Assembly: GCA_963813065.1 (NCBI GenBank)
Contig: CAWEXP010000004.1
Location: 7,267-71,266 of the forward strand
Source of the DNA: Candidatus Kaiserbacteria bacterium
GTDB lineage: Bacteria > Patescibacteriota > Minisyncoccia > Phycocordibacterales > Phycocordibacteraceae
DNA: 64,000 nucleotides
Reading direction: 5' to 3'
Every line of letters begins with the position of its first letter. Within the stretch, counting starts at the first letter, position 1. The notes under the pieces were generated by a model that was not told the DNA's origin, ran no database searches, and saw only the letters and a program-made list of their open reading frames with translations. The translations under genes and the position numbers were made by a program. This document shows positions 12,286-30,927 of this stretch, piece after piece.

Positions 12286-14073
12286 TCAATCGAGCAAATG
12301 CATCACGAATGACCTGCGCCATGCGCTTTCGACGCACTCTGTGAGGAAGTGCGGGTACTCCATGTTCTGCCACCCCTCCGGGAGCGCGTGCCAATAATAC
12401 GCTTCTTTGCGCGCCGCCTCGTCGCCATTGAAGCGGGCGAGGTATCCGGGGAAATACACGCTCGGTGGATTGTCGCTAATGTCATTGTTGTCGCCCCACT
12501 CGACGAGCGCGTAGTTAGCGACTTGGTTGATTTCTGCGAAGTCCTTTACTCCGATGCGAGCAAGGTATTTGCGCGGAAAGAGGTGGTGCCGCTCCAACGC
12601 CGCCCGCTTCTCTTTCACGCCGTCTTCCAAGAGTTGCGAGGTCGTAAGATTGGAGAAGAGGACGCGAGCACCAAGGATGTTCAGCGCTGCATAGTAAGCA
12701 AACATCGCCGGGTTGCGCGCGGCACCGCTCACGAGTCCGCTGGTCGGGAGAGTGATGTTCCAGTAGTCATCGGTGATTTCGGTTTCGATGATTTTGGAAA
12801 GAATGTTCTCCAACGTCTCGCCTCCGAACTTCGCCTCACCAAAACGGGCAGAGCCGAAAAGCGCACGTCCGCGCTGGATAGCGCCGAGGTCTTCCTCCAT
12901 TTGGGTCTCTGCTGATTTGGTGTACCGACCGGTAAGTGAGATGAAGAAGAACCAGCGCGCAATAAGTTTTCGTAGCGACGGTGCCTCCATGTTGAAGTCG
13001 TATTTCCCTATGAGGAAGAGCGTGTAGGCGTACATGATGTTGTACGAAGAAGTAATCATGCCGCCGCGTGTGTACCCCGCTTCTTTGAGTGCTTTGAGGA
13101 ACTCGTGCCAGTTGTTGAGGTTGAGGGTCTTCTCTTGCGTCTCCTTCAGGATGGCGAACTGCTCTTCGCGTCGCTCGTTGCTGAACTCTTCGGTCTTCAG
13201 GTCTTTCCCGCGCAGGATGCTGTAAGCGTATTTCAGGCGGGCACGGTTGAAACCAAAACCGACAGCGACACGAAGCATCTGGTCTGGGTCGGGCTGGAAA
13301 ATGTAGTTGAAGGGTGTCGCGTGTCCTTCTGCGGGTATGCGGGCAGCACGAGCGAAGTTCTCCAACGCGAAACGCCCCTCATCCCAGAACACAGACATGA
13401 GAGTGAGCACGAAGTCCGTCTCTTTGAGACGTTTCCCTTTGCTGTTGATGCGCACGAAAATCTGTGCCACTTCTTCCTCGGATGCGGTTGAAGAGATTTC
13501 GAGTACCGAAAAGAGGAAGTGCTCCAAGCCGCGTAACTTCCCAATGGCATCCGCTGCTTTATTCTCTTCTTCGCTGGTAAGTCCGCGTGTCGAGCGCAGT
13601 TTCTCCAAGTAATCATTTGTGAAGCGGTTGAAGTTCTCGGTGCCCCATACTTCTGCAATGTCTTGAATGTATGCGGGGTCGTTTTTCGTGCTGGCGTCGG
13701 GCACAACGAACAGTTCTTCAACCGGATTGAAGGCGATGACGACCCTCTCTTTCTCGTAGTCTTCGCGGACAATCTCTTTACCCTTCACAACCGCGAAAAG
13801 CGATGTGAGGCGCTGCTGACCATCCACAATGAGGAAACGCGGAATGTGGTGCTTTGCCTCATCGCCGATGGTCTTGGTGTTGGCTTGATGGACATTCTCC
13901 CAGAAAAGCAGGTGCCCTATCGGGTAGCCACGGTACATACTGTCGAACAGGTCGCGGACTTGGGTGTTCTTCCAGACAAACGGTCGCTGAATGTCAGGCA
14001 AGCCAATGACGCCTCGGTCGATGTCTTCGATGAGACCCATCAGTCGATACTCTGTGCTCTTGAAGAGTGCCAT
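12286..14073 (-). CDS. GmrSD-like type IV restriction/defense nuclease (DUF262 ParB-like N-terminal domain plus DUF1524 His-Me finger C-terminal domain).
   Basis: DGQQRLTSL motif (DUF262). C-terminus ERHHLFPRKYL...NYALVEW (DUF1524-like). 595 aa. Confidence 0.75.
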   Translation of the reverse strand: MALFKSTEYRLMGLIEDIDRGVIGLPDIQRPFVWKNTQVRDLFDSMYRGYPIGHLLFWENVHQANTKTIGDEAKHHIPRFLIVDGQQRLTSLFAVVKGKEIVREDYEKERVVIAFNPVEELFVVPDASTKNDPAYIQDIAEVWGTENFNRFTNDYLEKLRSTRGLTSEEENKAADAIGKLRGLEHFLFSVLEISSTASEEEVAQIFVRINSKGKRLKETDFVLTLMSVFWDEGRFALENFARAARIPAEGHATPFNYIFQPDPDQMLRVAVGFGFNRARLKYAYSILRGKDLKTEEFSNERREEQFAILKETQEKTLNLNNWHEFLKALKEAGYTRGGMITSSYNIMYAYTLFLIGKYDFNMEAPSLRKLIARWFFFISLTGRYTKSAETQMEEDLGAIQRGRALFGSARFGEAKFGGETLENILSKIIETEITDDYWNITLPTSGLVSGAARNPAMFAYYAALNILGARVLFSNLTTSQLLEDGVKEKRAALERHHLFPRKYLARIGVKDFAEINQVANYALVEWGDNNDISDNPPSVYFPGYLARFNGDEAARKEAYYWHALPEGWQNMEYPHFLTECVESAWRRSFVMHLLD

Positions 14074-14088: not shown

Positions 14089-15378
14089 CTACTTCTGACC
14101 CTCAATAAGAGGCACGTTCTCTGTAGCAATCTTTGATGGCAATCGGGGTTCTTCGTCAATGGTTTGCACCGTCTCTGCTTCGATTTGGAGTCGCCCGCCC
14201 AGATTGTCTATCACCTCTATTTTCGGCATCACACGCGAGTCCCACGAGTTCGCAGCGCTGTTGAACTTCTCGGTCGCTTTGGAGAGCGAACTACCGATAC
14301 CAACGAAGTGCCCAATGAACGCTTTGAGCCGGGCACCGAGGTCGATGACCTCCGTTGCCAACTTCGATGCGTTCTCAACTGACTTGTGTTGCCGCCATGC
14401 GTGCGCGATGAGAAGAATGAGTGGCATGATGGTCGCCGGACTGGCGAGCATGACTTTCTTCTCCTGTGCTTCGCGGTACAGGTTGGTATCGTGCTCGAAC
14501 ACGGCTCGTATCGCCGCTTCACCGGGTACGAACATAACGACGTATGGGATACGCTCGTCGAGATGCTTTTGGTATTCCTTACTCGAAAGGGCTTTGATGT
14601 GCCCACGGAGGTTCTGCGCGAACTTGCTCAAATGTTCCTGCTTCTTCTCTTCGTCCTTCTCTTCGACTGCCTTGAAAAACTCTTCCAGCCCTGCCTTGGA
14701 GTCGATAGCCAACTGCAAGCCGCCCGGAAGGTTTACCACCACGTCTGGACGCAAACGCTCGGCTTCGTCGTTCGTAAGGGTCTCTTGAATGTGGAAGTCG
14801 ATACCTTCCGTGAGTCCTGACTCTTCGAGGAGGTTCTTCAGTACCGTCTCGCCCCAACGACCGCGCACAGCGCTTGCGGACGAAAGCACTGTTTTGAGTG
14901 ATGTCGCCGACTCCTGCATCTTCACACCGGCGTCGAGGACGTTCTTGATGCTCTCGCCGAGTGCACCGAACTGCTCGCCACGCTCCTTTTCGAGGGCGCT
15001 TATCTTCTTCTCTACGGTTTCGATAGACTTGTTGACGCCTTCGGCGATTTTCTCGAAGCCCTTTTCCTTGCTCTCGATTGCTTGGGTATGTGATTTCTGT
15101 ACGCGCTCGAACTCCGAGAGAAAGTCCTTGGAGTGCTCGCGCATAACATCTCCGGCAATCGCCTTGAACCGCGCTTCCAGTTGCCCGACATCTTTCGACC
15201 GCTCTTCGAGAGCGCGTTTCTCCACGGCGATTTCTTGGTCTTTCGCGCGAAGTTCTACATCCTTTGCTTGGATTGCGGCGTTCTTCTCGACAAGTGCCTG
15301 CTTGCTCTTGGAGGAAGCGATGAAATACCCCGCTCCGCCCCCGATTGCCAACGCGATGATGAACCAGAAGTATTCCAT
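14089..15378 (-). CDS. rmuC: DNA recombination protein RmuC.
   Basis: N-terminal TM (MEYFWFIIALAIGGGAGYF), long coiled coil and RmuC nuclease-like C-terminus. The ORF-track N-terminal extension to 16293 is an artifact overlapping hsdR. Confidence 0.8.
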   Translation of the reverse strand: MEYFWFIIALAIGGGAGYFIASSKSKQALVEKNAAIQAKDVELRAKDQEIAVEKRALEERSKDVGQLEARFKAIAGDVMREHSKDFLSEFERVQKSHTQAIESKEKGFEKIAEGVNKSIETVEKKISALEKERGEQFGALGESIKNVLDAGVKMQESATSLKTVLSSASAVRGRWGETVLKNLLEESGLTEGIDFHIQETLTNDEAERLRPDVVVNLPGGLQLAIDSKAGLEEFFKAVEEKDEEKKQEHLSKFAQNLRGHIKALSSKEYQKHLDERIPYVVMFVPGEAAIRAVFEHDTNLYREAQEKKVMLASPATIMPLILLIAHAWRQHKSVENASKLATEVIDLGARLKAFIGHFVGIGSSLSKATEKFNSAANSWDSRVMPKIEVIDNLGGRLQIEAETVQTIDEEPRLPSKIATENVPLIEGQK

Positions 15379-15398: not shown

Positions 15399-17861
15399 CT
15401 AATCTTTGCCACCGAACGCGTACACCCGCTCCTTCAGCCCGCGCACGAAGCCGAAGAGACCCTCTGGGTACTTCGCTTGGATGATTTCCTTCTTCGCGTT
15501 CATGTTGGGCAGGAGGAACGCCTCCGACGAGAGGTTCTCTTCGCCGCCGCTCTTGTACTTCTCCATGATGTCGCGGATGGCTTCGCCGATGTCTTTGCCG
15601 TAGTGGTCGAGCATCTGGGCATTGGCACGCATGAACTGCTTGACGCGGTCTTCGCGGGTCAGGAGCGGAGCATCGAAGGCGATGTGGGCTATCACGTCGA
15701 AGGCGTCGCTGTCCTCCAAGTTCTCGATGGACTTGATGAGCGGGATGTTGACGCGCTTCGCCTCCAAGTCCGCGATAAGGCGCTCGCGCTTCTCCGGGTC
15801 GAGCCAGACCGCACGCAGTTCGTCGGTCGTGTGCACCATCTCGGCTATCTTCTCGCCGGAGTATTTGCGATACTCCGCCTTCGAGAGTTTTATGCCGTCG
15901 AACTCTATTTCTATTTCCTCGTCGACCGTAACTACGATGCCTTTGACGGTTATCTTCTTCGGCGCACCCTTGAGCGGCTTCAAGCGGAACTCGTACGGCG
16001 TTTCCTCCTCGGACTTGTGCGGTTCGAGACGCTTGGAGAGACCTTTGTAGTCCGCGTGCTCGACGCGTACCGTAACCTCGTCGTTCGAGGGCAGACCGAA
16101 AATCTTGAAGAAGCCGTCGGCGTCCGTCTTGCCAATCTTCTCCCAGCGTCCCAGTTTGACCTTCACCACAGCACTCGCCACGTGCTCCTCGGTCTTGTTG
16201 TCGACTACGATGCCGGTAATCAGTTTGTCGAAGGGCGCTATCGGCTCCGCCGGAGGCGTAGGCGGTGCTGGCGGCTTCGGTGCAACGTCCCACTCGTCCA
16301 AGAGCCGGGTCGCATTGGTGAAGTCAATGATGCGGAAGAAACCCTTGCCCTCGAAGAGCCGTGAGCCGCGCCCCATAATCTGCTTGAAGAGCACGCGCGA
16401 GGCGATGGGGCGCATGAACACGATGTTCTGCACGTGCGGGATGTCCACGCCGGTCGAGAGCAGGTCGACCGTCGTAGCGATGACCGGCATCGGGCGCTCC
16501 TTGTCGCGGAAGAGCGTGAGGTCGTCCTTGTCCTCCGCCACGACACGCGCGGCGTAGTCCTCGCGCCCCTTCAGTTCGTTCAGTTTGTCCTTCACTGCTT
16601 GCGCGTGCGCCATGTCGACACAGAAGACAATGGTCTTGCCGTACTTGTTCGTATCGTCGAGTACCTCGATGACCTTCTGCGAGAGCAGGTCTATCTGTTC
16701 GGGGATGGTAACGGCGCGTTCGTACTCGGAGGGTTCGTAGAAGTCCTTGATGTCCTCCGGCTCGACTTCGTCGTCGTAGATAACCTCTTCTGCCGCAGCG
16801 ACGGAAAGACCCTTGCGATAGAGGTTCGTGGTTACCTTGTAGATTTTATACGGCACGAGATAGCCGTCTTGGATTGCTTCTCCGAGAGAGTATTGGAAGA
16901 CCGGCTCGCCGAAGTAGTCGTACACGTCGATGTTGTCTTCGCGCCGCGGCGTCGCGGTCATGCCGAGTTGCGCTGCACCACCGAAGTGCTCCAAGATGTC
17001 GCCCCAGTCGCCGTAGCGGGAGCGATGGCACTCGTCGATGATAACGAGGTCGAAGAAGTCGGAGGGTATCTGCTTGTACAGGTCGCCTGCGAAGAGCGTC
17101 TGGTACGTGGCGAAGTAGATGTCGCGGTTGCGGTTGAAGTCGCCGCCCTCTATCTTGGCGCGCGCCTCACCGAACGGCTCGAAGTCGCGGCTGTAGGCGT
17201 CATCGCGCAGGATGATGCGGTCGCAGAGGAAGAGCACGCGGTGTATGGACTTCGATTTGACGAGTTTCCAGACAATCTGGAAGGCAGTGAAGGTCTTGCC
17301 GGTGCCGGTCGCCATCGTGAGAAGCGTCGTCTTCTTGCCCTTGGTGATGTTCTCGACGACCGCCTTTATCGCGGTCTCCTGATACGCACGCGGGCGCTTC
17401 GTGCCGCTCACGTGGAGTGGGTATTCGAGCGCGGAGAGGTTCTTGTCTTCAAGCCCTTTCCACTCTACGTATGCCTTGAACATCTCTTCAGGCGAGAGGA
17501 AGGATGAGACCTCCTCCGGGGCTTTCATCGTGCGACGGTCGTAGAGGTACGTGGTCTTGCCGTTGGAGATGTACGCGAAGGGCACGTCGAGGCGCTGCGC
17601 GTAGTCCTGCACCTGCGTCATGTGCTTCATCGGGTCTTCGTCCTCCGCCTTCGCTTCGAGCACCGCTACTGTTACGTTCTGGTAGATGAGGACGTAGTCG
17701 GCGAAGAGCGCCGTGGGCAGGCGCTTGTATTCCTCGCCTTCGACGTAGAAGCGGTCGTCGGAAATGGGATAGTTGCGGAGCAGATACTCCTCTTTCCACC
17801 CGGCATCATGTATCTGCGGGTCGATGAGTTTTACGCGCGTGTCGTCTTCGGAGTAAGCCAT
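15399..17861 (-). CDS. hsdR: Type I restriction enzyme R subunit HsdR. Carries an inserted carboxypeptidase-regulatory-like beta-sandwich domain and an EcoEI_R_C-like C-terminus.
   Basis: TMATGTGKT Walker A. IIDECHRS DEAH box. ITGIVVDNKTEEHV...TDADGFFKIFGLP CarbopepD_reg-like segment. C-terminal ELRAVWLDPEKRERL... Confidence 0.9.
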   Translation of the reverse strand: MAYSEDDTRVKLIDPQIHDAGWKEEYLLRNYPISDDRFYVEGEEYKRLPTALFADYVLIYQNVTVAVLEAKAEDEDPMKHMTQVQDYAQRLDVPFAYISNGKTTYLYDRRTMKAPEEVSSFLSPEEMFKAYVEWKGLEDKNLSALEYPLHVSGTKRPRAYQETAIKAVVENITKGKKTTLLTMATGTGKTFTAFQIVWKLVKSKSIHRVLFLCDRIILRDDAYSRDFEPFGEARAKIEGGDFNRNRDIYFATYQTLFAGDLYKQIPSDFFDLVIIDECHRSRYGDWGDILEHFGGAAQLGMTATPRREDNIDVYDYFGEPVFQYSLGEAIQDGYLVPYKIYKVTTNLYRKGLSVAAAEEVIYDDEVEPEDIKDFYEPSEYERAVTIPEQIDLLSQKVIEVLDDTNKYGKTIVFCVDMAHAQAVKDKLNELKGREDYAARVVAEDKDDLTLFRDKERPMPVIATTVDLLSTGVDIPHVQNIVFMRPIASRVLFKQIMGRGSRLFEGKGFFRIIDFTNATRLLDEWDVAPKPPAPPTPPAEPIAPFDKLITGIVVDNKTEEHVASAVVKVKLGRWEKIGKTDADGFFKIFGLPSNDEVTVRVEHADYKGLSKRLEPHKSEEETPYEFRLKPLKGAPKKITVKGIVVTVDEEIEIEFDGIKLSKAEYRKYSGEKIAEMVHTTDELRAVWLDPEKRERLIADLEAKRVNIPLIKSIENLEDSDAFDVIAHIAFDAPLLTREDRVKQFMRANAQMLDHYGKDIGEAIRDIMEKYKSGGEENLSSEAFLLPNMNAKKEIIQAKYPEGLFGFVRGLKERVYAFGGKD

Positions 17862-17863
17862 AG

Positions 17864-19063
17864 TTATGTTTGCATAGCGAACGATTGGTTGAGCACCGAG
17901 GAGCGCAAAGCGGTGAAATGTTCCTGTTGCCTATCAAACAGTTGTTCGATTTGGTTTGTTGTGGAGGTCATCTTCTCCAACTCATCGGCAAGCCGTTCTT
18001 GTTCTTTGAGGTCAGGTTCGCCATTCTTCATCGGTATTCCCAGTTTTACTTTCACGAGGTCGGTTTTGGTTATGTGGCGCAGCCCAGCCCCTCCGTGCGA
18101 GTTGGCTATCATCTCATCGAGTTTTTCATTGACCGCGTACTTCAAGTACCTGCGAGAAAGCAGGTCTGTTTTCGGAACGGCGTTGAAGATGTGCTGATTG
18201 AGTATCGCCTTGCCTCTGCTCCAAATAAATGCGCCAAAGGATGTGCCGGGTGTTCCTGACCATGCAATCAACAGGTCTCCGGTGTCTATCAAGAAGCGCT
18301 CTTCAACTGGATGCTCGTAGTGGTTGTATTTTGCGTCAGGGTTATTGAGGTTCTGTATCCGAACAATCGGCAATCCTTTCGCTGACCAATCGGTCTCCTT
18401 GAACGCCCGACCATTTTGCAGGTCAAGCACTTCTCCGAGTGCTATTTCAGCAAAGTCAGGTCTCTGCAAGAGTTCTCTCGCAACGCCAAAACCCAAGGAC
18501 TTTGCCAGCCGTTCGTTGGCTTCGTTTGTACGCACACCTTTTTCTACCTCTGCAAAAACCATTTCTAATCTGTCCGCGATGCGTTTCTGCTCGGCGAGGT
18601 CGGGTTTGCCGTTCGAGAACGGAATGGAAATCTCGATTTCGTTGAGTAGTTCGCGATTGAGAGCCGGGTATTGCGCACCCTGTGTCAAAGCGGTCGTCTG
18701 GTCAACGAAACCATCTGATAACGCGCAATAGAGCAGAAAGCGAGGTTCGAGGTCTGACGACTTCTCTATAACAAAGAAGCCAGTTGATGCGATGGCACCG
18801 TCGTACTCCTTCGGCACTACAGCAAATCCACGCAAATAAGGTCTCACGCTGGCAATCAGTAAATCGCCTTCTCGTACTACTCTACGCGCCCTCGAAGGAG
18901 CGTTTGAGCGGGAGAGTGTTTTTGGGTTCACAACTGTACCGCCCTTCACCGCATCGATGTCGATGTACGTAAACTGCGCAGGCAAATCACCCGGACTTAT
19001 TGAGTGGGTGTTTATTGAGAAGAGCGTGCTTCCGAGTTTTTCTTTACGCCATTCCATACTCAT
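17864..19063 (-). CDS. hsdS: Type I R-M specificity subunit HsdS (two target-recognition domains).
   Basis: Duplicated TRD architecture with conserved central and distal coiled regions. 4 nt overlap with hsdM. Confidence 0.9.
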   Translation of the reverse strand: MSMEWRKEKLGSTLFSINTHSISPGDLPAQFTYIDIDAVKGGTVVNPKTLSRSNAPSRARRVVREGDLLIASVRPYLRGFAVVPKEYDGAIASTGFFVIEKSSDLEPRFLLYCALSDGFVDQTTALTQGAQYPALNRELLNEIEISIPFSNGKPDLAEQKRIADRLEMVFAEVEKGVRTNEANERLAKSLGFGVARELLQRPDFAEIALGEVLDLQNGRAFKETDWSAKGLPIVRIQNLNNPDAKYNHYEHPVEERFLIDTGDLLIAWSGTPGTSFGAFIWSRGKAILNQHIFNAVPKTDLLSRRYLKYAVNEKLDEMIANSHGGAGLRHITKTDLVKVKLGIPMKNGEPDLKEQERLADELEKMTSTTNQIEQLFDRQQEHFTALRSSVLNQSFAMQT

Positions 19064-20703
19064 TTCGCCACCGCCTTTTTCAGCGAGGTCAAAAGTGTCT
19101 CTATCTCGCGCTGGTTCTTCTCTATCTCACCAATGATTTCCACGGGCGGCAAGAGCGCTTCACTCTCTGCGCTGTTGGGGTTCTTTGGCGAAATGTCCCA
19201 GCCACGTTCTCGGATGGTCTCCCCCGGGACAATCCACGAAGTATCCGAGACCTCGCGCTTCTTCCACTTCTCGAAGACCTCCTCCAAGTGCTCGTCCATC
19301 ACGTTTTTCTTCTTGGTGAACTTGCCCTGTACCTCGCCGTACCAGATTTCCTTTGTCGCACCGGTCTTCTCGAAGAAAACGAGGTTGGTTTTCACGCCCG
19401 CACCCATCTGCGCGAAAGTGCCCTGCGGAAGCGAGATGATTGCAGAGACGTTGAACTTCGTCAGGAGGTCTTCGCGTATGCGAGCCATGGCTCCGCCGCC
19501 GAAGAGGATGTTGCCTTCGGGAAGAATGACACCGCAACGTCCTCCGTTTTTGAGACGCTTCATTACGTATTGGAGCGCGAGACCTTCAGTTGCGCCCACT
19601 TGTATCGGGTAGTTGTTCTGTACCGTCTTCGGCTCTTCAGCGCCGAACGGAGGGTTGGTGAGGATGACATCGACCTTCTCACTCTCCGGCATGTTGTGCA
19701 CGTCCTCCATAAAGGTGTTCGTGCGCGTGATGTTCGGCACGAGGACGTGGTGGAGAATGAGGTTCATCGTGCCGATGAGGAATGGCAACGGCTTCTTCTC
19801 TTGACCATAGAGCGTTTTGGTTTGCAGCGTCTTCCATGCGCGGACATCCTTCGTGGAGTTCTCATAGATGTGATTGAAACTCTCAACGAGGAAGCCGCCG
19901 GAGCCAACGAACGGGTCGAGGACGGTCTCGCCCAACTGCGGGTTCACGATTTTGACCATCAGCCGGATGAGCGGGCGCGGCGAATAGAACTCGCCCGACC
20001 AGCCACCTTCGCTGCCCATCGCTTGCAGGATTTCTTCGTACACCTGCGAGAGCAGGTTGGTGTCTTGGAAGTGATGCTTCTCTATCTTGTCGAGTATCTC
20101 GATGACATCGAGCAGGTTGTGCGGCGAGCGGATGCGGTTGCCCGGCAGTTCGCGGAAAATCTCCCCGATTTTGTCGCGGCGCGGGTCGCCCTTCAGTGCT
20201 TGCAGGTACGGGAACAGTTTTTGATTTATGAAAAAAATGAGTTCGTCTTTGTCCTTCCAATCCTTCTTCGCCCACGCCGACCACTGATACTCGGCGTCGA
20301 TGACCGGCTGATACTTCCGTCCCTCCGCCTCTTCGAGTTCTTTCAGTTGCGCTTCGACGCCCTCAAACACTTTGAGGAAGAGGAGCCACGAGAACTGTTC
20401 GATGTAGTCCTTCGCACCGACGCCATCGTCGCGGCGGAGGATGTCGCAGACGTGTTTGATGTCCGCCTTCGTCAAACTCTCGCGCTTGCTCACCATCTCT
20501 TTCTCGATGCCACGCACGACCTCCGGCGCTTCGCCTTCAACAAACGCTTTGAGGGCACTCGCCGAGATGCGCCACGTACCGCCGACCTTCTTGGCTGCGA
20601 GTTTCTTATCGTGGATGTAGCGGAAGGCAGTGCGCTCGCTCACGTGGAGCAGGTCGGCTACCTCATCGAGCGCGTAGAGTCGGTCGGTCGTGGTTTCGTT
20701 CAT
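19060..20703 (-). CDS. hsdM: Type I R-M N6-adenine methyltransferase HsdM with an N-terminal Xis/MerR-like HTH fusion.
   Basis: TNPPFG motif. N-terminus ALDEVADLLHVSERTAFRYIHDKKLAAKKVGGTWRISASAL is HTH_17-like. Confidence 0.9.
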   Translation of the reverse strand: MNETTTDRLYALDEVADLLHVSERTAFRYIHDKKLAAKKVGGTWRISASALKAFVEGEAPEVVRGIEKEMVSKRESLTKADIKHVCDILRRDDGVGAKDYIEQFSWLLFLKVFEGVEAQLKELEEAEGRKYQPVIDAEYQWSAWAKKDWKDKDELIFFINQKLFPYLQALKGDPRRDKIGEIFRELPGNRIRSPHNLLDVIEILDKIEKHHFQDTNLLSQVYEEILQAMGSEGGWSGEFYSPRPLIRLMVKIVNPQLGETVLDPFVGSGGFLVESFNHIYENSTKDVRAWKTLQTKTLYGQEKKPLPFLIGTMNLILHHVLVPNITRTNTFMEDVHNMPESEKVDVILTNPPFGAEEPKTVQNNYPIQVGATEGLALQYVMKRLKNGGRCGVILPEGNILFGGGAMARIREDLLTKFNVSAIISLPQGTFAQMGAGVKTNLVFFEKTGATKEIWYGEVQGKFTKKKNVMDEHLEEVFEKWKKREVSDTSWIVPGETIRERGWDISPKNPNSAESEALLPPVEIIGEIEKNQREIETLLTSLKKAVAK

Positions 20704-20711
20704 GAAGCCAT

Positions 20712-20739
20712 CCTATACCCGCCCGCCCCGTTTGTCAAC
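20712..20739 (-). promoter_or_regulatory. Candidate sigma-70 promoter for hsdM (TTGACA, 16 nt spacer, TATAGG). The ATG is 8 nt downstream, so possibly leaderless.
   Basis: Reverse complement of tgtcaa at 20734-20739 and cctata at 20712-20717. Additional TTGACA-like boxes nearby. Confidence 0.3.
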
Positions 20740-20803: not shown

Positions 20804-21115
20804 TTAGAATACGGCTCCTTTACTTGATTTTATCATACCTCCGCACTTCGAGCACTGGTCTCCTGACTCCAAAAAAGACCCTATTTCGCCGCAACGGGGG
20901 CATTTCGTATCGTTTTCCATCATCTCGACTACCTGCCCGCAACCAGCACAGTACCGCTCGGAGGTGTATCGAGCGACATACTGCTCGTTTGCCTGTCCTA
21001 CAGGCACCTTGGCGAGGTTCGGCGGCGTATCCGGTTTCCACTCTGGCACGTCCTGCACGAGGCGCACACGGAAGTTGCAGGACAAGTTCTCGCAGCGGAG
21101 GATGAGCGAGTTCAT
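20804..21115 (-). CDS. Zinc-ribbon protein (103 aa), last gene of a 4-gene translationally coupled cassette.
   Basis: CAGCG...CPRCG...CSKCG. ATGA overlap with the upstream gene. Confidence 0.4.
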   Translation of the reverse strand: MNSLILRCENLSCNFRVRLVQDVPEWKPDTPPNLAKVPVGQANEQYVARYTSERYCAGCGQVVEMMENDTKCPRCGEIGSFLESGDQCSKCGGMIKSSKGAVF

Positions 21116-21447
21116 GGCTTCGACTCGTCTTCAATCGCCTTTCGTCCTTCCTTCACTTTGTCCTCAAAATCATGGCGTGCGAGCAGGTCGAAGAAGCCGA
21201 CCATGTCGTTGTCCACGATAGACGTATCAGCCGAGCCGCTCGGCTTTGCGACGAGCCGCTCGTGCTCCAAATCGTGTTCAAGTATCGTTGCGGTGCTACC
21301 GATGTCGTCCGACCCGGTGCGCTTCATAAGCGAGAGAAGCCACCCGGCAACGTACTCCCTGTTCTTCGCGGCTATGGGGTACAGATTTGGAAAGTCTCTC
21401 TCGGTAAGGTCGACGCCCAAGATGTTGATGGTCGCGTGCCGCGTCAT
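21112..21447 (-). CDS. Hypothetical protein (about 111 aa, start MTRHATIN).
   Basis: ATGA overlaps at both ends (21112-21115 and 21444-21447). The ORF-track N-terminal extension is R/S-rich and probably not translated. Confidence 0.35.
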   Translation of the reverse strand: MTRHATINILGVDLTERDFPNLYPIAAKNREYVAGWLLSLMKRTGSDDIGSTATILEHDLEHERLVAKPSGSADTSIVDNDMVGFFDLLARHDFEDKVKEGRKAIEDESKP

Positions 21448-21626
21448 GCGAGTCCGAGAAGATGCGTAATGAGCGCTATGAACACGACTGCGAGACCGAG
21501 AACGAGCACCGCTATGGCTGCTGGCACGAGACCGGCGAAGACCATCACGAGATGGTTGAACCAACTGGCGAGCGTCATGCGCTTGCCGTCGTCTTCCCAC
21601 ACCTCGTACCAGTGCTGCGTACTCAT
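21444..21626 (-). CDS. Small membrane protein (60 aa).
   Basis: One or two hydrophobic helices. ATGA coupled to both neighbours. Confidence 0.3.
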   Translation of the reverse strand: MSTQHWYEVWEDDGKRMTLASWFNHLVMVFAGLVPAAIAVLVLGLAVVFIALITHLLGLA

Positions 21627-22180
21627 GGCTTCATCTTCTGCGTTCGCCCCTTACCATCGACCACGAAGTCGGGGGCGTTCCTGTCGTTCCATCGCTCGAC
21701 CGTTCGCGCCTTTCGGATTGACCAGACGATGAGTGCGCCTCCGAGTAGGAAGATGAAAACACTCACACCATAGGATGCGTCCGTAGAGTTGGTCTTTATG
21801 ATGCCGAGTCCCATGAGCACGAAGACAAAGCCGAGCAGCCGTAAACTCTGTATCGTTTTCGTAGCATCCTCCATTCGCCGCTGCACATGCAATCGCTTTT
21901 CGGCTGGTGATTTCAACTCTTCGAGAACCGACGCCCGGCGTTGTCGATGAAGCGCGTATCTTACGAGAATGACGGAAGCGATAACCGAACCGAGTATGAA
22001 AACGAGTACCCACGGGTCAGTCCAGTGCCAGATGAGCGTAGAAAGCACGAGTGCTGCGGCGTAGCAGACAAGTGCGGTGTTGGAAAAAGGTTTTGGTAGT
22101 TTGAGTTCGCTTGGGCGCATGGGATTGCGCCGGGCGGTCGCAGAGAACCCGCCACGGGCTACGGCTTGCGCCGTACGCAT
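21623..22180 (-). CDS. Membrane protein with four predicted TM helices (start may be MRPSELKL at 22120).
   Basis: Two hydrophobic hairpins separated by a basic helical linker. First gene of the coupled cassette. Confidence 0.4.
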   Translation of the reverse strand: MRTAQAVARGGFSATARRNPMRPSELKLPKPFSNTALVCYAAALVLSTLIWHWTDPWVLVFILGSVIASVILVRYALHRQRRASVLEELKSPAEKRLHVQRRMEDATKTIQSLRLLGFVFVLMGLGIIKTNSTDASYGVSVFIFLLGGALIVWSIRKARTVERWNDRNAPDFVVDGKGRTQKMKP

Positions 22181-22368
22181 CAGTTTCCCAATGCGGCACG
22201 TAATGCGACCCCATGACGGGTTCTCTACGCATTACGTGTCTCCCGACCATGCCACCGTTACCGATGGTTTAGGTCGTCGCCCTTGCGGGCTATTCGTGTG
22301 TCTTCCCCTCACAAGAAGGGTTACTGATAAGTGTAGCGCATTTGCTACCAAGTGCTACCAAGTGTTCA

Positions 22369-22926
22369 TCACTCCTTACACTCGGCTTTCCTCTCCCGCT
22401 CGTACTGGTCTAGATAGGCGGAGAGCGATGGCGAAGAGAGAACACGGCTGGGCGTTTTTGCCATTGACTTCGAGTACCCGGCGGCAAGCAGCATGTCCCC
22501 GTAGTGCAACCATCTGCGACCATTATCCGATAAGATTTCTACGAGTCGGAGTTGCCGAGAATTGAGCGTCTGATGCCTTCCGGTTGGCAAGACAGCGCAT
22601 TCTTTTTCGCTTCCCACGTCCCCCTTATTTCCCTCATCTTCCGATGTGTTTCTGCTGCCCGTACCTTGGCTCATCGCGTCGCACCCGTTCCACCATCTTC
22701 CACCATCTTCCGATAAGTTTTCAGTGGAAAGAGAGGGTTGCGTCATTACCTCTTGGCTATCTGCTGGGGTAGCCACGTACCCCTCTTTTCCAGTACCTTC
22801 CGATGAGTTGATAGTATCCTTCTGTTCAATGTTCATACGTTTTTGTAACCTAGATAATAACGAAGCCCCGCCCACGCCTTTTCGACCCGTCTGCCGCTCT
22901 CCTTTCCCATGTGTGCAAGTTCTCAA
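22369..22926 (-). CDS. Phage terminase small-subunit-like HTH protein with a low-complexity SEG/SED-repeat N-terminal region.
   Basis: C-terminal LNSRQLRLVEIL...GDMLLAAGYSKSMAKTPSRVLSSP resembles the TerS P27 family AGYS..A motif. Repeated cttccgat and ccaccatctt DNA repeats. Confidence 0.3.
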   Translation of the reverse strand: MRTCTHGKGERQTGRKGVGGASLLSRLQKRMNIEQKDTINSSEGTGKEGYVATPADSQEVMTQPSLSTENLSEDGGRWWNGCDAMSQGTGSRNTSEDEGNKGDVGSEKECAVLPTGRHQTLNSRQLRLVEILSDNGRRWLHYGDMLLAAGYSKSMAKTPSRVLSSPSLSAYLDQYERERKAECKE

Positions 22927-23633: not shown

Positions 23634-23672
23634 CCACAAAAGCGCCTCATGATTTGTCATGGGGCTTTTTTG
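23634..23672. terminator. Bidirectional terminator hairpin (gcctcatga-tttg-tcatggggc) with flanking A/T runs, after the DUF3800 gene.
   Basis: 9 bp stem with one G-U pair. T6 on the plus strand. TTTTGTGG on the minus strand after the stop at 23647. Confidence 0.55.
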
Positions 23673-24537
23673 TAGCATCAGTACCCCACGGAACTTTCAC
23701 TGCATCGGGAACTTTTACCAAACCATATCCGGCAATCCGTCCTTTAACATTGTGATAAAAATTCTCTGTAATACGGGAGAAAAAAGAGTATTCAACTAAT
23801 GCGTTCCCTTCCGGCGATTCCCAGCTGTCGCCATGTTGTACGAACTGACGGAATATATTGTAAGCAACCGTATCGGCAAGCTGAAGAAAATTTGAATTGC
23901 ACGATTTTTCGAAACGTACACATGCGTGCGAATATTTCTTTTGGTATGAACCGAGATTGAGATCTCTTTTAGAAATCCTCAGGAGCGTACCATGATCGTG
24001 TTTCTGAGACTTGATACTTTCCTCCATTTGGTCAAAAACAATCTCGGCACCACTATTTGGATGTAGTTCGACCCGATCGAACAAGACCTGTGCCAACTCT
24101 TGAAATGGCGTTACCTTCGTTCTTTTCGCGTTATAGAACCGTTTATCAATGATAAACGCTTGAATCTGAATACTCTCACGATTTTTCTCAAACAGACTAT
24201 ACCAAGCATTCTCAACAAACCGTTTAAGGGTCTCTTCGGTAATGGCAAATGGTTCAAGATATTTCTTACGCCGTTTTATCGGAATGCGTAGCCACTCTGA
24301 TTTTATCTCGACGTGTTTTGTACCAAAGTACTCATGTTTCAAAGCGTCTATTTCCGGATTTATTCGGGCAACAGCCTCAGTTGATACATATATGCCAGCA
24401 AGCACGAAGTAATTTCCACGCCAAAATTTTATGTTTTCGTTGATGCGAGCTGGTGGTTTCAATATGAACTCATGGGCATAAGGAGTTTCCCAATCTTTAG
24501 AGCCACTATCATCAACAAAGAAGAACGGTTTGTCCAT
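23647..24537 (-). CDS. DUF3800-family protein (defense-island associated), in a distinctly AT-rich segment.
   Basis: N-terminal FFVDDSG and C-terminal FLQLADTVAYNIFRQF match the DUF3800 signature. GC clearly lower than the flanks. Confidence 0.65.
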   Translation of the reverse strand: MDKPFFFVDDSGSKDWETPYAHEFILKPPARINENIKFWRGNYFVLAGIYVSTEAVARINPEIDALKHEYFGTKHVEIKSEWLRIPIKRRKKYLEPFAITEETLKRFVENAWYSLFEKNRESIQIQAFIIDKRFYNAKRTKVTPFQELAQVLFDRVELHPNSGAEIVFDQMEESIKSQKHDHGTLLRISKRDLNLGSYQKKYSHACVRFEKSCNSNFLQLADTVAYNIFRQFVQHGDSWESPEGNALVEYSFFSRITENFYHNVKGRIAGYGLVKVPDAVKVPWGTDATKKPHDKS

Positions 24538-26245: not shown

Positions 26246-26273
26246 CTTGCACTACGTAGCTTTAGCGAAGTAG

Positions 26274-26346
26274 TGGACCCTGGGGGATTCGAACCCCCTA
26301 CCTCTGCAATGCCATCGCAGCGCTCTACCAAGTGAGCTAAGGGCCC
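26274..26346 (-). tRNA. tRNA-Ala (anticodon GGC).
   Basis: Manual cloverleaf. Acceptor GGGCCCT/AGGGTCC with G3:U70. Anticodon loop ATGGCAT. T loop TTCGAAT. Confidence 0.8.
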
Positions 26347-26360
26347 TGAACAAAAAGATA

Positions 26361-26924
26361 TTACCCCGCCAAAAGATAAAACGCGAGGGCAATGCTCACT
26401 GCCGCCCACGCGAGGCCGCCGAGAATGTCGAGGAGTTCGTGTTGGCGGACAAAGACCGTCGAAACCGCGATGCAGAGCGCAATCGCCCAGATAAGGATGG
26501 CGAACGGCGGGAACGCGAGCGCGAGGAAATAGCCCGAGATAATCGAGAGATAGACGTGCGAGCTGGGGAACGCGTTTGCGAACCCTTCGTGGTGATAAAT
26601 CTCCTTCAAGACGCGGCGCAATTTCCCCTGTCCGACATTGAAGGGGTGCCGGAAACCCGTCGGGAAGAGATACCAGAAGAGCGCGGCAGAAAAGGAAGCG
26701 ATGGCTATCGAGGTATAAAACATGCTAGCGACGGGCGAGAAGAAGAGCGTCACGAACGCAAAAATGACGAAGGGAAAGAGGCTGACATACGGCACAACGA
26801 AGAGCGGCACAAGCGGTACGCGCCTATCCCACGCCGTCTTCCAGTAGTGTCGCGCATGGCGGCGGTTCAACGGGCCCCAGAGCGAGATACCAAAGAGCGC
26901 GACGACCAGCAAGAGCAGAGTCAT
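26361..26924 (-). CDS. PAP2-family membrane phosphatase (undecaprenyl-diphosphatase-like); leaderless start MTLLLL.
   Basis: PSSH and VRQHELLDILGG PAP2 motifs. ATG at 26924 lies 6 nt after TATAAT. Confidence 0.65.
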   Translation of the reverse strand: MTLLLLVVALFGISLWGPLNRRHARHYWKTAWDRRVPLVPLFVVPYVSLFPFVIFAFVTLFFSPVASMFYTSIAIASFSAALFWYLFPTGFRHPFNVGQGKLRRVLKEIYHHEGFANAFPSSHVYLSIISGYFLALAFPPFAILIWAIALCIAVSTVFVRQHELLDILGGLAWAAVSIALAFYLLAG

Positions 26925-26928
26925 GAGC

Positions 26929-26938
26929 GGATTATACC
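26929..26938 (-). promoter_or_regulatory. Extended -10 TGGTATAATCCGCTC for a leaderless PAP2 mRNA. The aminotransferase stop TAA lies inside the TATAAT.
   Basis: Reverse complement of gagcggattatacc at 26925-26938. Confidence 0.45.
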
Positions 26939-28143
26939 GCGGAGTCGAGGTATGCACGGACATTCTCCGCGATGGTGCGGATAGTTTTTTCGAACTGTGC
27001 ATCATCTTGCTCGAGAAGCGTGAGCCGGAATCCGTAACGGTCGGAGTTGAAGCCGGAGGAGAGCGCGACGACGCAGATGCCGGTCTTTGCGAGGAGCTGG
27101 TACGCGAATCGCTGGTCGAGCTGGACGCCGTCGAGATACGGCGCGATGACTGCCCTCGCCTGCTCCGAAATGTTAAGTGACTGCTCTTTTTTTAAAACGC
27201 CATCACGGAAAACGACGGTCAGATAGAACGCGCCGTGCGCTGGGTGCAAAATAATTTCTGGAATCGCGGAGAAAATCTCGCACGCGAGTTTGCTCTTGCG
27301 GTCGTAGCTCGCCGTGCGCTCCGCGAGATACGGCAAGTAGCGCGCGTCGCTCATCACCTCGGGCAGGACTTTCTGCGGGAGCGTCGTCGAGCAGACCTCG
27401 AGCATCTTCGAATCAATCAGTGAGCGTGTGTAGCGGTCGAAGTTGCGGTCGGCAGAGCGATTGTAGAACTCGGCCCAGCCACAGCGGCTCCCGGGCCAGG
27501 GGAACTCCTTCGAGATGCCGCGTAGCGCAATCCCCGGCACCTCGCCGATGACCGAAGCGAGCTTCTTCATCATCGCGCCGTCGTAGGCAAGGTTGGAATA
27601 AATTTCATCCGAGATAATAAAAAGTTTGTAGCGACGCGCGATATCCACCATCTGCGCGAGCGTTTCCTGCGGATAGACGAAGCCCGTCGGATTGTCGGGA
27701 TTAATAATCAAAATGCCCGCAATCGAAGGATTATTCTGTATCTGTTCTTCGAGGTTCGCCACATCTGGTGCCCAACCCTTCTCTGGGTCGAGCCGGTAGG
27801 TCAGCGCGGGCGCATCGGCGTGCGCCGCCTCGGCCGAAGAATGTGTCGGGTATGCGGGGTTCGGCCCAATGACGCGCGCACCGGCGTTGAGGTTGGTATA
27901 GAGTTTCGAAATTGCGTCGCCGAGACCATTGAAAAATAAAATATCGTCGGCCGTAATCTGGATGCCGCCCTCGAGATTGCGCTCCTGCGCGATGTACGCG
28001 CGCGTGGCGTCGAGGCCGGCCGTCGGCGAGTAGGCGTAGGTCGCGGGGTCAGCCGCCGCTCTCTGCACAATCTCGCGTATCCACAGCGGCGGTGCGAAGC
28101 CCTTCGCGACCGGGTCGCCAATATTCTCCCAAACAATGGGCAT
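26932..28143 (-). CDS. PLP-dependent aminotransferase, class I/II.
   Basis: 403 aa. SKEFPWPGSRCGW Schiff-base lysine region. NPDNPTG motif. Confidence 0.8.
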   Translation of the reverse strand: MPIVWENIGDPVAKGFAPPLWIREIVQRAAADPATYAYSPTAGLDATRAYIAQERNLEGGIQITADDILFFNGLGDAISKLYTNLNAGARVIGPNPAYPTHSSAEAAHADAPALTYRLDPEKGWAPDVANLEEQIQNNPSIAGILIINPDNPTGFVYPQETLAQMVDIARRYKLFIISDEIYSNLAYDGAMMKKLASVIGEVPGIALRGISKEFPWPGSRCGWAEFYNRSADRNFDRYTRSLIDSKMLEVCSTTLPQKVLPEVMSDARYLPYLAERTASYDRKSKLACEIFSAIPEIILHPAHGAFYLTVVFRDGVLKKEQSLNISEQARAVIAPYLDGVQLDQRFAYQLLAKTGICVVALSSGFNSDRYGFRLTLLEQDDAQFEKTIRTIAENVRAYLDSAV

Positions 28144-28256
28144 GCCGAGTTTCTCGATCTCTTCGCGAGCGCGACTATCGCGCGAATCTCATAATGCAAT
28201 TGGTCCGCGCCGGGGTGTACGAGATTGGTCCGCATGAGCCTCATATACTACCGTAC

Positions 28257-28439
28257 TTAAAAATACTCCCCACCTTTGACATCGAAGGTGCGCTGGTCGA
28301 ACGAGACGACCATGTACCAGCCCCAGCAAATTTTTTCATTTTTTGCGCCGATGAAATCGAACCAATATTCGGGAACTTCTCGAAGTATTCGACCCAGAGT
28401 TACCGGCTCCTCGTCCGCCGGGTCGAACCTCATCATCAT
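28257..28439 (-). CDS. Small hypothetical ORF (60 aa).
   Basis: ORF only. Confidence 0.2.
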   Translation of the reverse strand: MMMRFDPADEEPVTLGRILREVPEYWFDFIGAKNEKICWGWYMVVSFDQRTFDVKGGEYF

Positions 28440-28441
28440 TT

Positions 28442-28796
28442 TTATCGGTGACGTTCCACCGCGACACTGTAGTGATCGCCGTCCTCGAAGGCACCACTAA
28501 AGATGACGGGCAGTTTTTCTTTCTGCAGAAAATAACGCAGGTCGTCGACCGTGCCGCCCGACTTGGCGAAGACGTGGCCGCCAATCTGCTTGACCGCGTG
28601 GATGAGCCCCTCGTGCTCGGTGCCGATCTCCATCGTCGCGTCGGCGAGTTGCGCGAGCTGGGCCTCGGAAAAATTCTTTGCCGAAATAGGAGAGGAGAAT
28701 CTTGAGTGACGCCGGGCCGCAAAAACCGGCACTCTGGGTGAAGTGCTGTACGGCGACGCCCGCAGGCGCTATGAGTTTGTTCCCGTCGAATGGCAT
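28442..28796 (-). pseudogene. C39-like (papain-fold) peptidase gene split by a frameshift in an A5 run.
   Basis: VQHFTQSAGFCGPASLKILLSYFGKEF is a C39 Cys motif. It continues in another frame as SEAQLAQLADATMEIGTEHEGLIHAVKQIGGHVFA... Confidence 0.4.
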
Positions 28797-28798
28797 GT

Positions 28799-28869
28799 GG
28801 ACCTAGGGAGAATCGAACTCCCGCCTCGTCAATGCGAATGACGCGTAATACCACTTTACTATAGGCCCG
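28799..28869 (-). tRNA. tRNA-Ala (anticodon CGC).
   Basis: Manual cloverleaf. Acceptor GGGCCTA/TAGGTCC with G3:U70. Anticodon loop TTCGCAT. TGGTATAAC -10-like box 10 nt upstream. Confidence 0.75.
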
Positions 28870-28906
28870 TATAGGTTGTTATACCACGAACGGAAATTAT
28901 TTTCAT

Positions 28907-28921
28907 CGGGCCGCCGGGAAC
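28907..28921 (-). repeat. tRNA-Pro 3'-end remnant (tcgggccgccgggaa).
   Basis: 15 nt identical to the 3' acceptor/T-stem of tRNA-Pro(GGG) at 29085-29099. Sits in the 215 bp intergenic stretch between tRNA genes. Confidence 0.5.
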
Positions 28922-29085
28922 CGCGAGTACGCATTCTTCCGCGACTCTCGCCTCGCCGCCGCTCGGCTCGGTCGTGTCCGCGCCTCGGCATCGCGCACTG
29001 CTGTGCGTGATAGGCCTGCGGCTTTCGATTCCCAACGTTCAGCGCGCAGGCGCTGAACTGCGGCCCTCACTCCGCCTTGCTTCGT

Positions 29086-29156
29086 TCGGGCCGCCGGGAA
29101 TCGAACCCGGTCTGCATGACCCCCAGCCATGCGTACTACCAGCATACGCCGGCCCG
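29086..29156 (-). tRNA. tRNA-Pro (anticodon GGG).
   Basis: Manual cloverleaf. Acceptor CGGGCCG/CGGCCCG. Anticodon loop CTGGGGG. T loop TTCGATT. Confidence 0.75.
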
Positions 29157-29170
29157 TCTTCTTGAGCGTA

Positions 29171-29620
29171 TCAGTTGAGTAGGATGATGCCAAGGTTGAG
29201 CGTTGCGGCATACGAGACCCAGAGCAGATATGGCAGGAGGAGCCATGCCGCGGTGCGCGACTGGCGTGCAAAGAGAAACACGAGCCAGAGAATGAGCATC
29301 CAGAGCAAGACGATAATCGCAAATGCAAATCGCGACGCGTGGAGCCCGAAAAAAATAATCGACCAGAGAGCGTTCAGCACGAGCTGTAGGAAAAATATTT
29401 TAATCACAAACGCACGACCCGACCGCCGAGCACGCCACACGAGGAGCGCGGCGATGCCCATCAGGAGATACAGCGTCGTCCATACCGGCGCAAAGACCCA
29501 CGCGGGCGGCGTCCACGAGGGTTGTACGAGATGCGCGTACCACGTTGTGATCTGCGAGGTCGTGAAGAGTGAACCGATGGCTCCGGCAATAAAAGGAGAA
29601 ACGAAACAAAGCGTCGGCAT
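29171..29620 (-). CDS. tspO: TspO/MBR tryptophan-rich sensory protein.
   Basis: PSWTPPAWVFAPVWTTLYLLMG and five TM helices. Confidence 0.8.
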   Translation of the reverse strand: MPTLCFVSPFIAGAIGSLFTTSQITTWYAHLVQPSWTPPAWVFAPVWTTLYLLMGIAALLVWRARRSGRAFVIKIFFLQLVLNALWSIIFFGLHASRFAFAIIVLLWMLILWLVFLFARQSRTAAWLLLPYLLWVSYAATLNLGIILLN

Positions 29621-29682
29621 ACACCAGCGAGGCATAGATGTATGGTAGCACTCGCGCTTCTCCTCTTCCGAGCTGTCCTCTG

Positions 29683-29753: not shown

Positions 29754-29777
29754 ACACAAGACATCTCTATCGCACAG

Positions 29778-30888: not shown

Positions 30889-30927
30889 ACGTTCTAGTAT
30901 ACGCGACCAGGGCACGGGTTGTTTTGG

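Follow-up and report, generated by a model that had tools for sequence, protein, structure and literature searches.

Lysogeny modules of temperate phages carry superinfection-exclusion and Rex-type genes, such as the lactococcal Sie2009, the TP-J34 Ltp and lambda RexA/RexB, with RexB being a channel of four transmembrane (TM) segments that works together with a soluble partner. At the RNA level, HK022 put and the Bacillus EAR are processive antiterminator RNAs controlling whole operons, and the mRNAs of type I toxins have long folded 5' untranslated regions (UTRs). Here we analyse a stretch of 64,000 nt (hereafter the window) from a Candidatus Kaiserbacteria bacterium (GCA_963813065.1, contig CAWEXP010000004.1, positions 7,267 to 71,266), where a LOOT RNA (Rfam RF03000) precedes a cassette of four small genes, termed A to D, on the minus strand. 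All positions are given in window coordinates, and the main comparison locus is L002 (GCA_009712145.1).

LOOT itself is a known family: the motif was described by Weinberg et al. 2017 (PMC5737381), and a paper on CaCoFold assigns to it about 43 bp in six helices, with 28 unusual cross-covariations (PMC7657543). Neither a function nor a gene context of LOOT was found in the literature searched, the supplement describing LOOT being outside that search. Our favoured reading overall, on which we would put even chances, is that the cassette is a LOOT-led, RNA-controlled membrane-protein operon belonging to the backbone of an integrating element. Relative to the Rfam entry and the literature searched, the cis context of LOOT, the two additions to its structure described below (P0 and X-Y), the link with serine recombinases and the protein families of C and D appear to be new.

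The LOOT RNA and its alternative pairing

The RNA and the genes that follow it are laid out as listed.

22115-22306, minus strand: hyper-conserved non-coding block with P0, LOOT, Y and a start-codon hairpin, about 99% identical to L002
22279-22290, minus strand: P0, an extra 5' hairpin with a GNRA loop (GCCCGCAAGGGC), just upstream of the Rfam model
22160-22275, minus strand: LOOT RNA core (Rfam RF03000), full-length cmscan match
22210-22229, minus strand: segment X, apex of the long helix P3 (CGUAGAGAACCCGUCAUGGG), perfectly complementary to Y
22139-22158, minus strand: segment Y, LOOT 3' extension beyond the Rfam model (CCCGUGGCGGGUUCUCUGCG), complementary to X over 20 nt
21623-22120, minus strand: gene A, 165-aa protein with four TM segments (longest reading 21623-22180, 185 aa)
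21444-21626, minus strand: gene B, 60-aa membrane peptide
21112-21447, minus strand: gene C, 111 aa from its ATG, acidic soluble protein with two modules
20804-21115, minus strand: gene D, 103-aa predicted Zn-ribbon protein

The LOOT core was matched by cmscan along the whole model (positions 1-121 of 121), scoring 84.2 bits (E 1e-15) where the gathering score is 46.4, and is the sole LOOT in the window. The LOOT region is the most conserved sequence of the locus. Indeed, the coding DNA beside the block is 81% identical to L002, and the stretch from P0 to Y has a single difference in 152 nt, with synonymous divergence (dS) of the flanking genes between 0.45 and 1.8. The RNA fold of the region has a z-score of -6.97. 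In an alignment of 15 loci helices P1 to P5 are 82-97% paired, mostly through double-changed pairs, with a score that none of 500 shuffles reached, and the basal P3 stem is 82% paired, 10 of its 11 pairs being compensatory. P0 is likewise present in most LOOT loci with compensatory changes (alignment A4: 77% of cells paired, three of four pairs double-changed).

The apical hairpin of the Rfam model is flagged as non-canonical in the cmscan alignment of the window LOOT. A duplex of 18-20 nt between X and Y was predicted in 16 of 16 LOOT instances (the window, L002, L123, L124, L130, L132, L133, L136, both copies of L138, L139, L140, L141, L144, L147 and L153), with z-scores from -2.8 to -6.6. 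In the 15-locus alignment 88-89% of the X-Y cells are paired, versus 43-52% in slid controls, with 11-13 double-changed pairs and 0 of 500 shuffles reaching the score, a comparison that is somewhat flattered by the structure having been taken from the window sequence. X directly adjoins the 5' arm of P3, the two first bases of X being common to both, and is separated from the 3' arm by 1-6 nt, so that the full X-Y helix of 18-20 bp cannot coexist with P3; two outcomes are then left, a partial pseudoknot or kissing complex, or an RNA that alternates between two states. The covariation supporting the X-Y pairing suggests a switch. A further alternative pairing, of Y with a downstream segment (Z) lying ahead of the first start codon, appears in the minimum free energy (MFE) fold of at least 6 of 11 loci and is suggestive. 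We also considered Y as the intrinsic terminator of a small RNA (sRNA) and dropped it as sole explanation, since terminator scans of the window, L123 and L147 did not call the Y hairpin and the "U-tract" near Y in the window (UUCUCU) pairs perfectly with AGAGAA in X.

Upstream of LOOT, just past the stop codon of a helix-turn-helix (HTH) gene, two copies of a 10-nt sequence (CACTTGGTAG) stand in tandem at about 22345-22364 (minus strand), and a small hairpin, CCCTTC-TTGT-GAGGGG, is found at 22305-22320 (minus strand), of which L002 keeps the structure and not the sequence (CCTCC...GGAGG). Repeat and hairpin may mark where the LOOT transcript begins, or a promoter/operator region.

The four genes and the recurrent module

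The earlier note, made from the letters of the window, had described four small open reading frames (ORFs) joined by ATGA overlaps, and all four were found on the minus strand, with the overlaps confirmed at 21623-21626 (A/B), 21444-21447 (B/C) and 21112-21115 (C/D). The strict co-translation deduced from these junctions is not conserved, as in L002 a 2-nt spacer separates B from C and D is absent. ATGA overlaps are indeed commonplace in the island, occurring also at hsdM/hsdS and at 10541-10544; one such junction, between a small peptide and the C gene, is found in two distant loci, L140 and L147. An identical 10-mer, GAAGCCATGA, makes up the A/B (21617-21626) and C/D (21106-21115) junctions, so that A and C both end in ...KP; of the two copies, L002 has the one at A/B alone. 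The 10-mer might act as a signal for coupling or be left over from the gain or loss of the D segment.

As to gene A, the four TM segments claimed for it were supported by hydropathy, but not its length of up to 185 aa, since the true start, on the pattern of codon change, is M21 of the long ORF (22120), giving 165 aa. Codons 1-20 of the 185-aa reading, the ATG of which (22180) is overlapped by the LOOT core, show no synonymous and one non-synonymous difference from L002, in agreement with the suspicion that this R/S-rich extension is non-coding. Third-position-dominated change is instead observed over codons 21-102 and 103-185, with ratios of non-synonymous to synonymous divergence (dN/dS) of 0.21 and 0.17, and the L002 homologue, P0004, has 165 aa and is 81% identical. 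The coding-type change over codons 21-185 rules out an 83-aa version of A given by one gene caller in a Logan contig copy. The A start codon follows Y by about 18 nt, with no Shine-Dalgarno-like sequence in between, and lies inside a predicted 6-bp hairpin.

Against L002, A, B and C have dN/dS values of 0.19, 0.09 and 0.125, respectively (HsdM/HsdR, 0.04-0.05), far below 1, which argues that A, B and C are translated and constrained. A word-indexed search of 5.8 billion proteins retrieved one other locus for A and C, namely L002, and for D nothing besides itself. In L002, A (165 aa), B and C are followed directly by a 96%-identical HTH_17-HsdM and then by HsdS, HsdR and RmuC, the roughly 330 bp that hold D in the window, past the end of C and ahead of the hsdM promoter, being absent. 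D has homologues in a 147-aa protein of L144 (E 2e-11) and a 148-aa protein of L162 (E 9e-13), both inside modules with LOOT and a C-family gene, and is an optional member of the module. A lack of conservation in related genomes, which the earlier note had named as grounds for giving up the ORFs, is thus contradicted by the selection on A to C and by the homologues of D. Judging from these comparisons, A, B, C and D are real genes and, together, would constitute the first operon downstream of the LOOT RNA.

A is basic, with a charged C-terminal tail, and is predicted by the positive-inside rule to be an inner-membrane protein with N-in/C-in topology, its basic N-terminus, central loop and C-terminal tail being cytoplasmic. 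Its N-terminal motif PSxLxLPKP[FW], followed by a TM segment, is weakly shared with 2-TM proteins of L150 and L140 (E 0.001). B has a short charged N-terminus and then a hydrophobic stretch at residues 22-60 (hydropathy); at its position L140 and L147 have analogues in 43-aa TM peptides, the genes of which share an ATGA overlap with the C-like gene. The eight Cys of D form one Cx4C and three CxxC pairs, so that the triple-CxxC zinc-ribbon pattern attributed to it is present with one further pair. Its best Pfam match, DZR, is below threshold (18.1 bits, cut-off 27.3), its overlap with PADLOC models amounts to 12.8 bits on the Zn ribbon of DrmB, and its single-sequence AlphaFold2 (AF2) model is unusable, with a predicted local distance difference test score (pLDDT) of 43.

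C is acidic (isoelectric point 5.0), has no Cys and consists of an N-domain with FPNLY...LEHDLEHE and a C-terminal peptide, IVDxDMVGFFDLLARxDxEDK. An exhaustive HMMER search with its profile gave 18 relatives among 1.84 billion representatives. One group, of 60-89 aa, has the N-domain only, with consensus I.ILGV.IT...FPNLY..A..NP..L...LEHDLEHE and invariant residues P20, L22, E57, D59 and H62, the LEHDLEHE motif being possibly a metal site; another, of 42-60 aa, has only the C-terminal peptide (IVDDDLVAFFDLLARFDYEDK), and one relative, P0005 of L140 (96 aa), has both parts. The N-domain profile had no match in PDB sequences, nor did a Pfam scan of all family members give any. In the AF2 model of C (pLDDT 72.6) an N-terminal beta-hairpin and a three-helix core are followed by a disordered linker and two C-terminal helices. 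C as a ribbon-helix-helix (RHH) regulator was rejected, the protein being acidic, built of a beta-hairpin and a helical bundle and with no DNA-binding match. Overall, the family-profile and structure searches that had been suggested for the cassette matched no known defence, holin or toxin family.

The C-terminal peptide also occurs as free mini-proteins of 42-60 aa (FFDLLARFDYEDK) in L141 (4141-4269), L158 (317-499) and L160 (206-373). In L141 and L158 large serine recombinases follow them with 0-1 gene in between, and the gene downstream of the L160 mini-protein is ATPase- or primase-like. A role in recombination directionality or in regulation is possible for these peptides.

Related loci were collected in two independent ways, those with LOOT through a specific LOOT sequence pattern and those with C through the exhaustive HMMER search; a 15-base LOOT pattern was too unspecific, with L066 the one real locus among 120 that were mostly chance matches. 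Matches of the specific pattern include Candidatus Parcubacteria SURF_41, Candidatus Kaiserbacteria RIFCSPLOWO2_01_FULL_54_13 and two IMG/VR contigs, and the named genomes with the same LOOT subtype are all metagenome-assembled genomes (MAGs) of Parcubacteria and Kaiserbacteria. The gene orders that bear on the cassette are the following, C-N denoting a C N-domain protein.

L140: LOOT, 75-aa 2-TM protein, 43-aa TM peptide (ATGA overlap), P0005, TerS-like HTH, helicase on the opposite strand, HTH_17-HsdM/S/R
L147/L146: LOOT, TM-anchored protein, 78-aa 2-TM protein, 43-aa TM peptide (ATGA overlap), C-N, HTH, 51-aa gene, serine recombinase, tRNA
L144: LOOT, 158-aa multi-TM protein, D-like Zn ribbon, C-N
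L162: LOOT, TM proteins, C-N, D-like Zn ribbon (C-then-D order, as in the window)
L163: LOOT, Zn-finger/2-TM protein, C-N

A LOOT on the same strand lies upstream in every C-family locus for which upstream sequence is available. From the comparison of these loci, a recurrent module can be delineated that consists of LOOT, one or more small membrane proteins, the FPNLY/LEHDLEHE protein and, in some cases, a Zn-ribbon protein, in at least six divergent lineages. Operons with LOOT and no C gene are found in L123, L124, L138 (both copies), L141 and L153, their first product having a TM- or signal-like segment. Among the 14 evaluable LOOT instances, 12 have the first ATG-started ORF 39-104 nt past the Rfam model and with such a segment; besides small proteins, LOOT heads membrane-anchored or secreted proteins of 280-290 aa and, once, a nuclease-like protein.

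The module also has recurrent neighbours. The C-terminal 54 aa of the HTH gene at 22369-22926 of the window are homologous to the HTH genes found immediately after the C-like gene in L140, L146 and L150, and in compact loci with enough sequence the module adjoins an HTH gene and, in L146, also a serine recombinase abutting a tRNA gene. This recurrence beside the TerS-like HTH gene, with the recombinase and the tRNA in L146, makes the module look like part of the backbone of an integrating, prophage-like element.

In the L138 contig two LOOT copies (506-624 and 9634-9744, minus strand) share one orientation at a distance of about 9 kb, and each has a TM-protein gene after it and a serine recombinase gene nearby. 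The interval holds a restriction-modification (R-M)-like set, recognised by eye, with a Vsr-like gene and a 416-aa protein bearing an HTH_17-like N-terminal motif, which is probably a methyltransferase or restriction enzyme. Genes for tRNAs are found within a few kb of LOOT in L123, L124, L130, L138 and L139, in addition to the one abutting the recombinase of L146.

The island around the cassette

In the window a single-strand array runs from the TerS-like HTH gene through LOOT, A-D, hsdM/S/R, RmuC, GmrSD, a DUF2321 protein, three uncharacterised genes and an excisionase-type HTH to a split serine recombinase, with the housekeeping gene ychF adjoining. The claim of a tightly packed operon of small membrane proteins with soluble and Zn-ribbon partners in a mobile defence island was well founded.

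23647-24537, minus strand: DUF3800 protein, defence-type cargo
22369-22926, minus strand: TerS-like HTH gene upstream of LOOT, element backbone
20710-20738, minus strand: hsdM promoter TTGACA-17-TAGGAT, promoter scan score 10/12
19060-20703, minus strand: HTH_17-HsdM (Pfam)
17864-19063, minus strand: HsdS (Pfam)
15399-17861, minus strand: HsdR (Pfam)
14089-15378, minus strand: RmuC (Pfam)
12286-14073, minus strand: GmrSD, also matching the PADLOC models HEC-05 and PDC-M55C
11943-12281, minus strand: DUF2321 double-Zn-ribbon protein, defence-type cargo
8845-9042, minus strand: excisionase-type HTH gene, intact (TIGR01764, 48.8 bits)
8417-8842 (Resolvase), 7662-8315 (Recombinase and Zn_ribbon_recom) and 7109-7717 (C-terminal part), minus strand: large serine recombinase in three ORFs

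The association of the cassette with the R-M system, on which the earlier note had built, was not borne out. The hsdM gene starts at 20703, 100 nt downstream of D, and has its own promoter, the -10 hexamer of which ends 6 nt ahead of the ATG, so that the hsdM mRNA may be leaderless; the TTGACA is kept in L002. Homologous cassettes do lie near R-M genes in the lineage of the window and L002 and in L140 (with two genes between), but nothing of the kind adjoins the module in L146, where it runs straight into the recombinase, or in L144. Given the separate promoter and the presence in only some lineages, R-M is best seen as neighbouring cargo; together with RmuC, GmrSD and the other defence genes it fills the interval between module and recombinase. 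As regards the latter, its splitting into three ORFs may reflect an immobilised element or assembly frameshifts.

Three further features of the island were recorded. HsdM is fused to an N-terminal, excisionase-like HTH_17 domain, and the same fused protein (547 aa) is found in L002 and L140. HsdS is 29% identical between the window and L002 (11674-12888), with 96% identity for the flanking HsdM and HsdR, which looks like a swap of the specificity subunit in an otherwise conserved R-M operon. Finally, seven tRNA genes lie within 7 kb (26273-33281, minus strand), just past the low-GC end of the island, four of them for tRNA-Ala with three anticodons.

Proposed function, rival explanations and known systems

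Under our favoured reading of a LOOT-led operon in the element backbone, a promoter ahead of LOOT would drive transcription across it into A-D, the approximately 18 nt between the LOOT extension and A leaving no room for a promoter there. The P3 apex would pair either locally or with the 3' tail, forming a cis switch that sets the read-through or the translation reaching A. A and B might assemble into a small complex in the inner membrane, to which the acidic C would be tethered, on the cytoplasmic face, by the basic loops of A and the cytoplasmic N-terminus of B; D, where present, might serve as an optional partner binding nucleic acid or protein.

In its specific form, which we put forward tentatively and with more doubt than confidence, the proposal is that LOOT is a cis RNA switch heading the cargo/lysogeny operon of serine-recombinase elements in bacteria of the candidate phyla radiation (CPR) type. 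Its tail would toggle between the P3 apex and the downstream segment, gating the membrane-protein genes (and the recombinase in compact elements), and A/B/C, with D in some cases, would be a membrane-anchored effector or regulator set dedicated to it. The switch could respond to a ligand or a protein, or work as a put/EAR-like antiterminator; a metabolite riboswitch is argued against by the functional heterogeneity of the genes downstream of LOOT.

As for what the proteins do, our best though still tentative guess, drawn by analogy with sie/rex genes, is that they provide element-encoded exclusion or immunity, at the membrane level, against superinfecting phages or related elements. It builds on the integration-proximal position, the rapid turnover of the membrane partners and the company of defence cargo. 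By hydropathy prediction, the membrane products expected of Sie-type genes are present in A (four TM segments) and B (residues 22-60), and a lysogeny/integration module by the recombinase is found both in the L147/L146 array and in the window, where the array ends with excisionase and recombinase.

Several observations weigh against the favoured reading. The serine recombinase of the window is fragmented, and promoter scans of the window, L123 and L147 gave no consensus promoter upstream of LOOT. No functional homology supports the proteins, as searches of A-D against Pfam, PADLOC, PHROGs and NCBIfam returned nothing above threshold and the AF2 model of C had no fold match in PDB or BFVD. B has no detectable sequence similarity with the 43-aa peptides of other loci and A is related to the 2-TM proteins at a marginal E of 0.001; it is thus the C and D families, LOOT and synteny that carry the term "same module". 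The association counts are biased, the loci having been collected via the LOOT pattern and C homologues, and the sample is small. Moreover, neither LOOT nor C had a match in GenBank phages and the C N-domain had no relative in IMG/VR, so that, with the module found neither in IMG/VR viral contigs nor in GenBank phages, "prophage-like" is a loose label. Lastly, LOOT, which is typed in Rfam as an sRNA gene, could act in trans; here it stands 39-104 nt upstream of a same-strand ORF, usually for a membrane protein, and this arrangement, seen in 12 of the 14 instances, suits a cis leader no less than a trans-acting sRNA.

The rival that survives best, though we regard it as unlikely, is that the operon regulates the element itself: A/B would hold C at the membrane, and C, through its FFDLLARxDxEDK tail, would act on the HTH regulator or on the recombinase or its directionality, thus coupling excision, integration or the lysis-lysogeny choice to an envelope signal, with LOOT controlling the operon. 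Such a role would fit the mini-proteins of the C-terminal module, which in L141 and L158 are at most one gene away from a serine recombinase, on its upstream side, but P0021, a protein with the same module, precedes an ATPase or primase-like gene instead. The genes from LOOT to the recombinase form one co-directional array in L147/L146, with gaps of at most 159 nt, and the C family is kept across elements that differ in membrane partners and cargo. C is, however, acidic and without a DNA-binding fold, an excisionase-type HTH gene already stands ahead of the window recombinase, and A-C are under purifying selection even though this recombinase is broken.

Rather less probable is an R-M-coupled abortive infection (Abi), the idea favoured by the earlier note, in which C and/or D would act as a soluble sensor activating A/B to depolarise or permeabilise the membrane, in the manner of RexA/RexB. 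The four predicted TM segments and basic loops of A, the small soluble partners C and D, the island with R-M, RmuC, GmrSD, DUF2321 and DUF3800 and the homologous HTH_17-HsdM systems near the module in L002 and L140 are all compatible with it. Direct support was not obtained, as no PADLOC, Pfam, PHROG or NCBIfam model matches the four proteins. The separate hsdM promoter, the two unrelated genes between module and R-M in L140 and the lack of an adjoining R-M in L146 and L144 speak for a module that tracks LOOT and the element backbone and not R-M.

We consider improbable that the cassette is a toxin/addiction or holin-like module, where the membrane peptides would be toxic, C would be the antidote or antiholin and the LOOT leader would keep translation off. 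Such a module would account for the small size and single hydrophobic stretch of B and of the 43-aa peptides, for the highly charged, holin-like C-terminal tail of A, for the A start codon within a predicted 6-bp hairpin and for the tight coupling of the genes. Against it, the neighbours of the window cassette that were scanned with Pfam have no endolysin domain, no PHROG holin was matched and no antisense RNA was seen, no search having been aimed at one; in addition LOOT is not a toxin-specific leader, since it also heads the 280-290-aa membrane-anchored or secreted proteins and, once, the nuclease-like protein. To the view that the cassette is an intergenic or leader region with non-functional remnants in place of genes, at least as far as D is concerned, which could appeal to D being retrieved only as itself among the 5.8 billion proteins and to the truncation of A to 83 aa by one gene caller, we give hardly any credence, given the dN/dS far below 1 of A-C, the syntenic homologues of D (E 2e-11 and 9e-13) and the 18 members of the C family.

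The consistent position of LOOT before membrane-protein operons near serine recombinases yields a concrete, testable hypothesis on its role, and likewise does the covariation-supported alternative pairing lying outside the current Rfam model. The analysis further defines a new family of small proteins (FPNLY...LEHDLEHE plus the FFDLLARxDxEDK peptide) and a recurring set of membrane and Zn-ribbon partners, in a group of organisms, the CPR, where phage defence and the biology of mobile elements are little explored; as far as the named genomes go, the carriers of this LOOT subtype are CPR MAGs. For the annotation of defence islands it implies that small genes abutting an R-M operon can be element backbone and not part of the R-M system.

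When compared with known systems, the LOOT of the window resembles RF03000 in its full-length match above the gathering score and its multi-hairpin architecture, with GNRA and UUCG loops covarying in the collected loci, and differs in P0 and the 20-nt X-pairing 3' extension, both missing from the model consensus in cmscan. R-M controller (C) proteins and accessory genes share with A-D the small size and the position directly upstream of a methyltransferase gene, but no HTH is present in A-D, hsdM is served by a separate promoter and carries a fused HTH_17, and elsewhere the cassette occurs without R-M. Type I toxin-antitoxin (TA) loci and holins are similar in their very small hydrophobic peptides, a trait seen in B, their highly structured 5' leader and their tight packing; they differ in that the leader found here precedes large secreted proteins elsewhere and in that no endolysin neighbour or PHROG holin match was found. 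Leader RNAs such as riboswitches, HK022 put and the Bacillus EAR are comparable as conserved structured RNAs heading a long co-directional phage-like array, and LOOT has mutually exclusive pairings just before the first gene (P3/apical versus X-Y, possibly also Y-Z), although its Y hairpin is not called as a terminator. From Sie/Rex genes A-D are set apart by the lack of sequence or profile similarity and by an operon of three to four genes with a new acidic family and a Zn ribbon, a large RNA at its head and a serine recombinase. Like those genes, they comprise small membrane proteins at the integration/lysogeny end of the element, near and co-directional with the recombinase and among defence cargo, and A, as RexB, has four (predicted) TM segments and is accompanied by a soluble partner.

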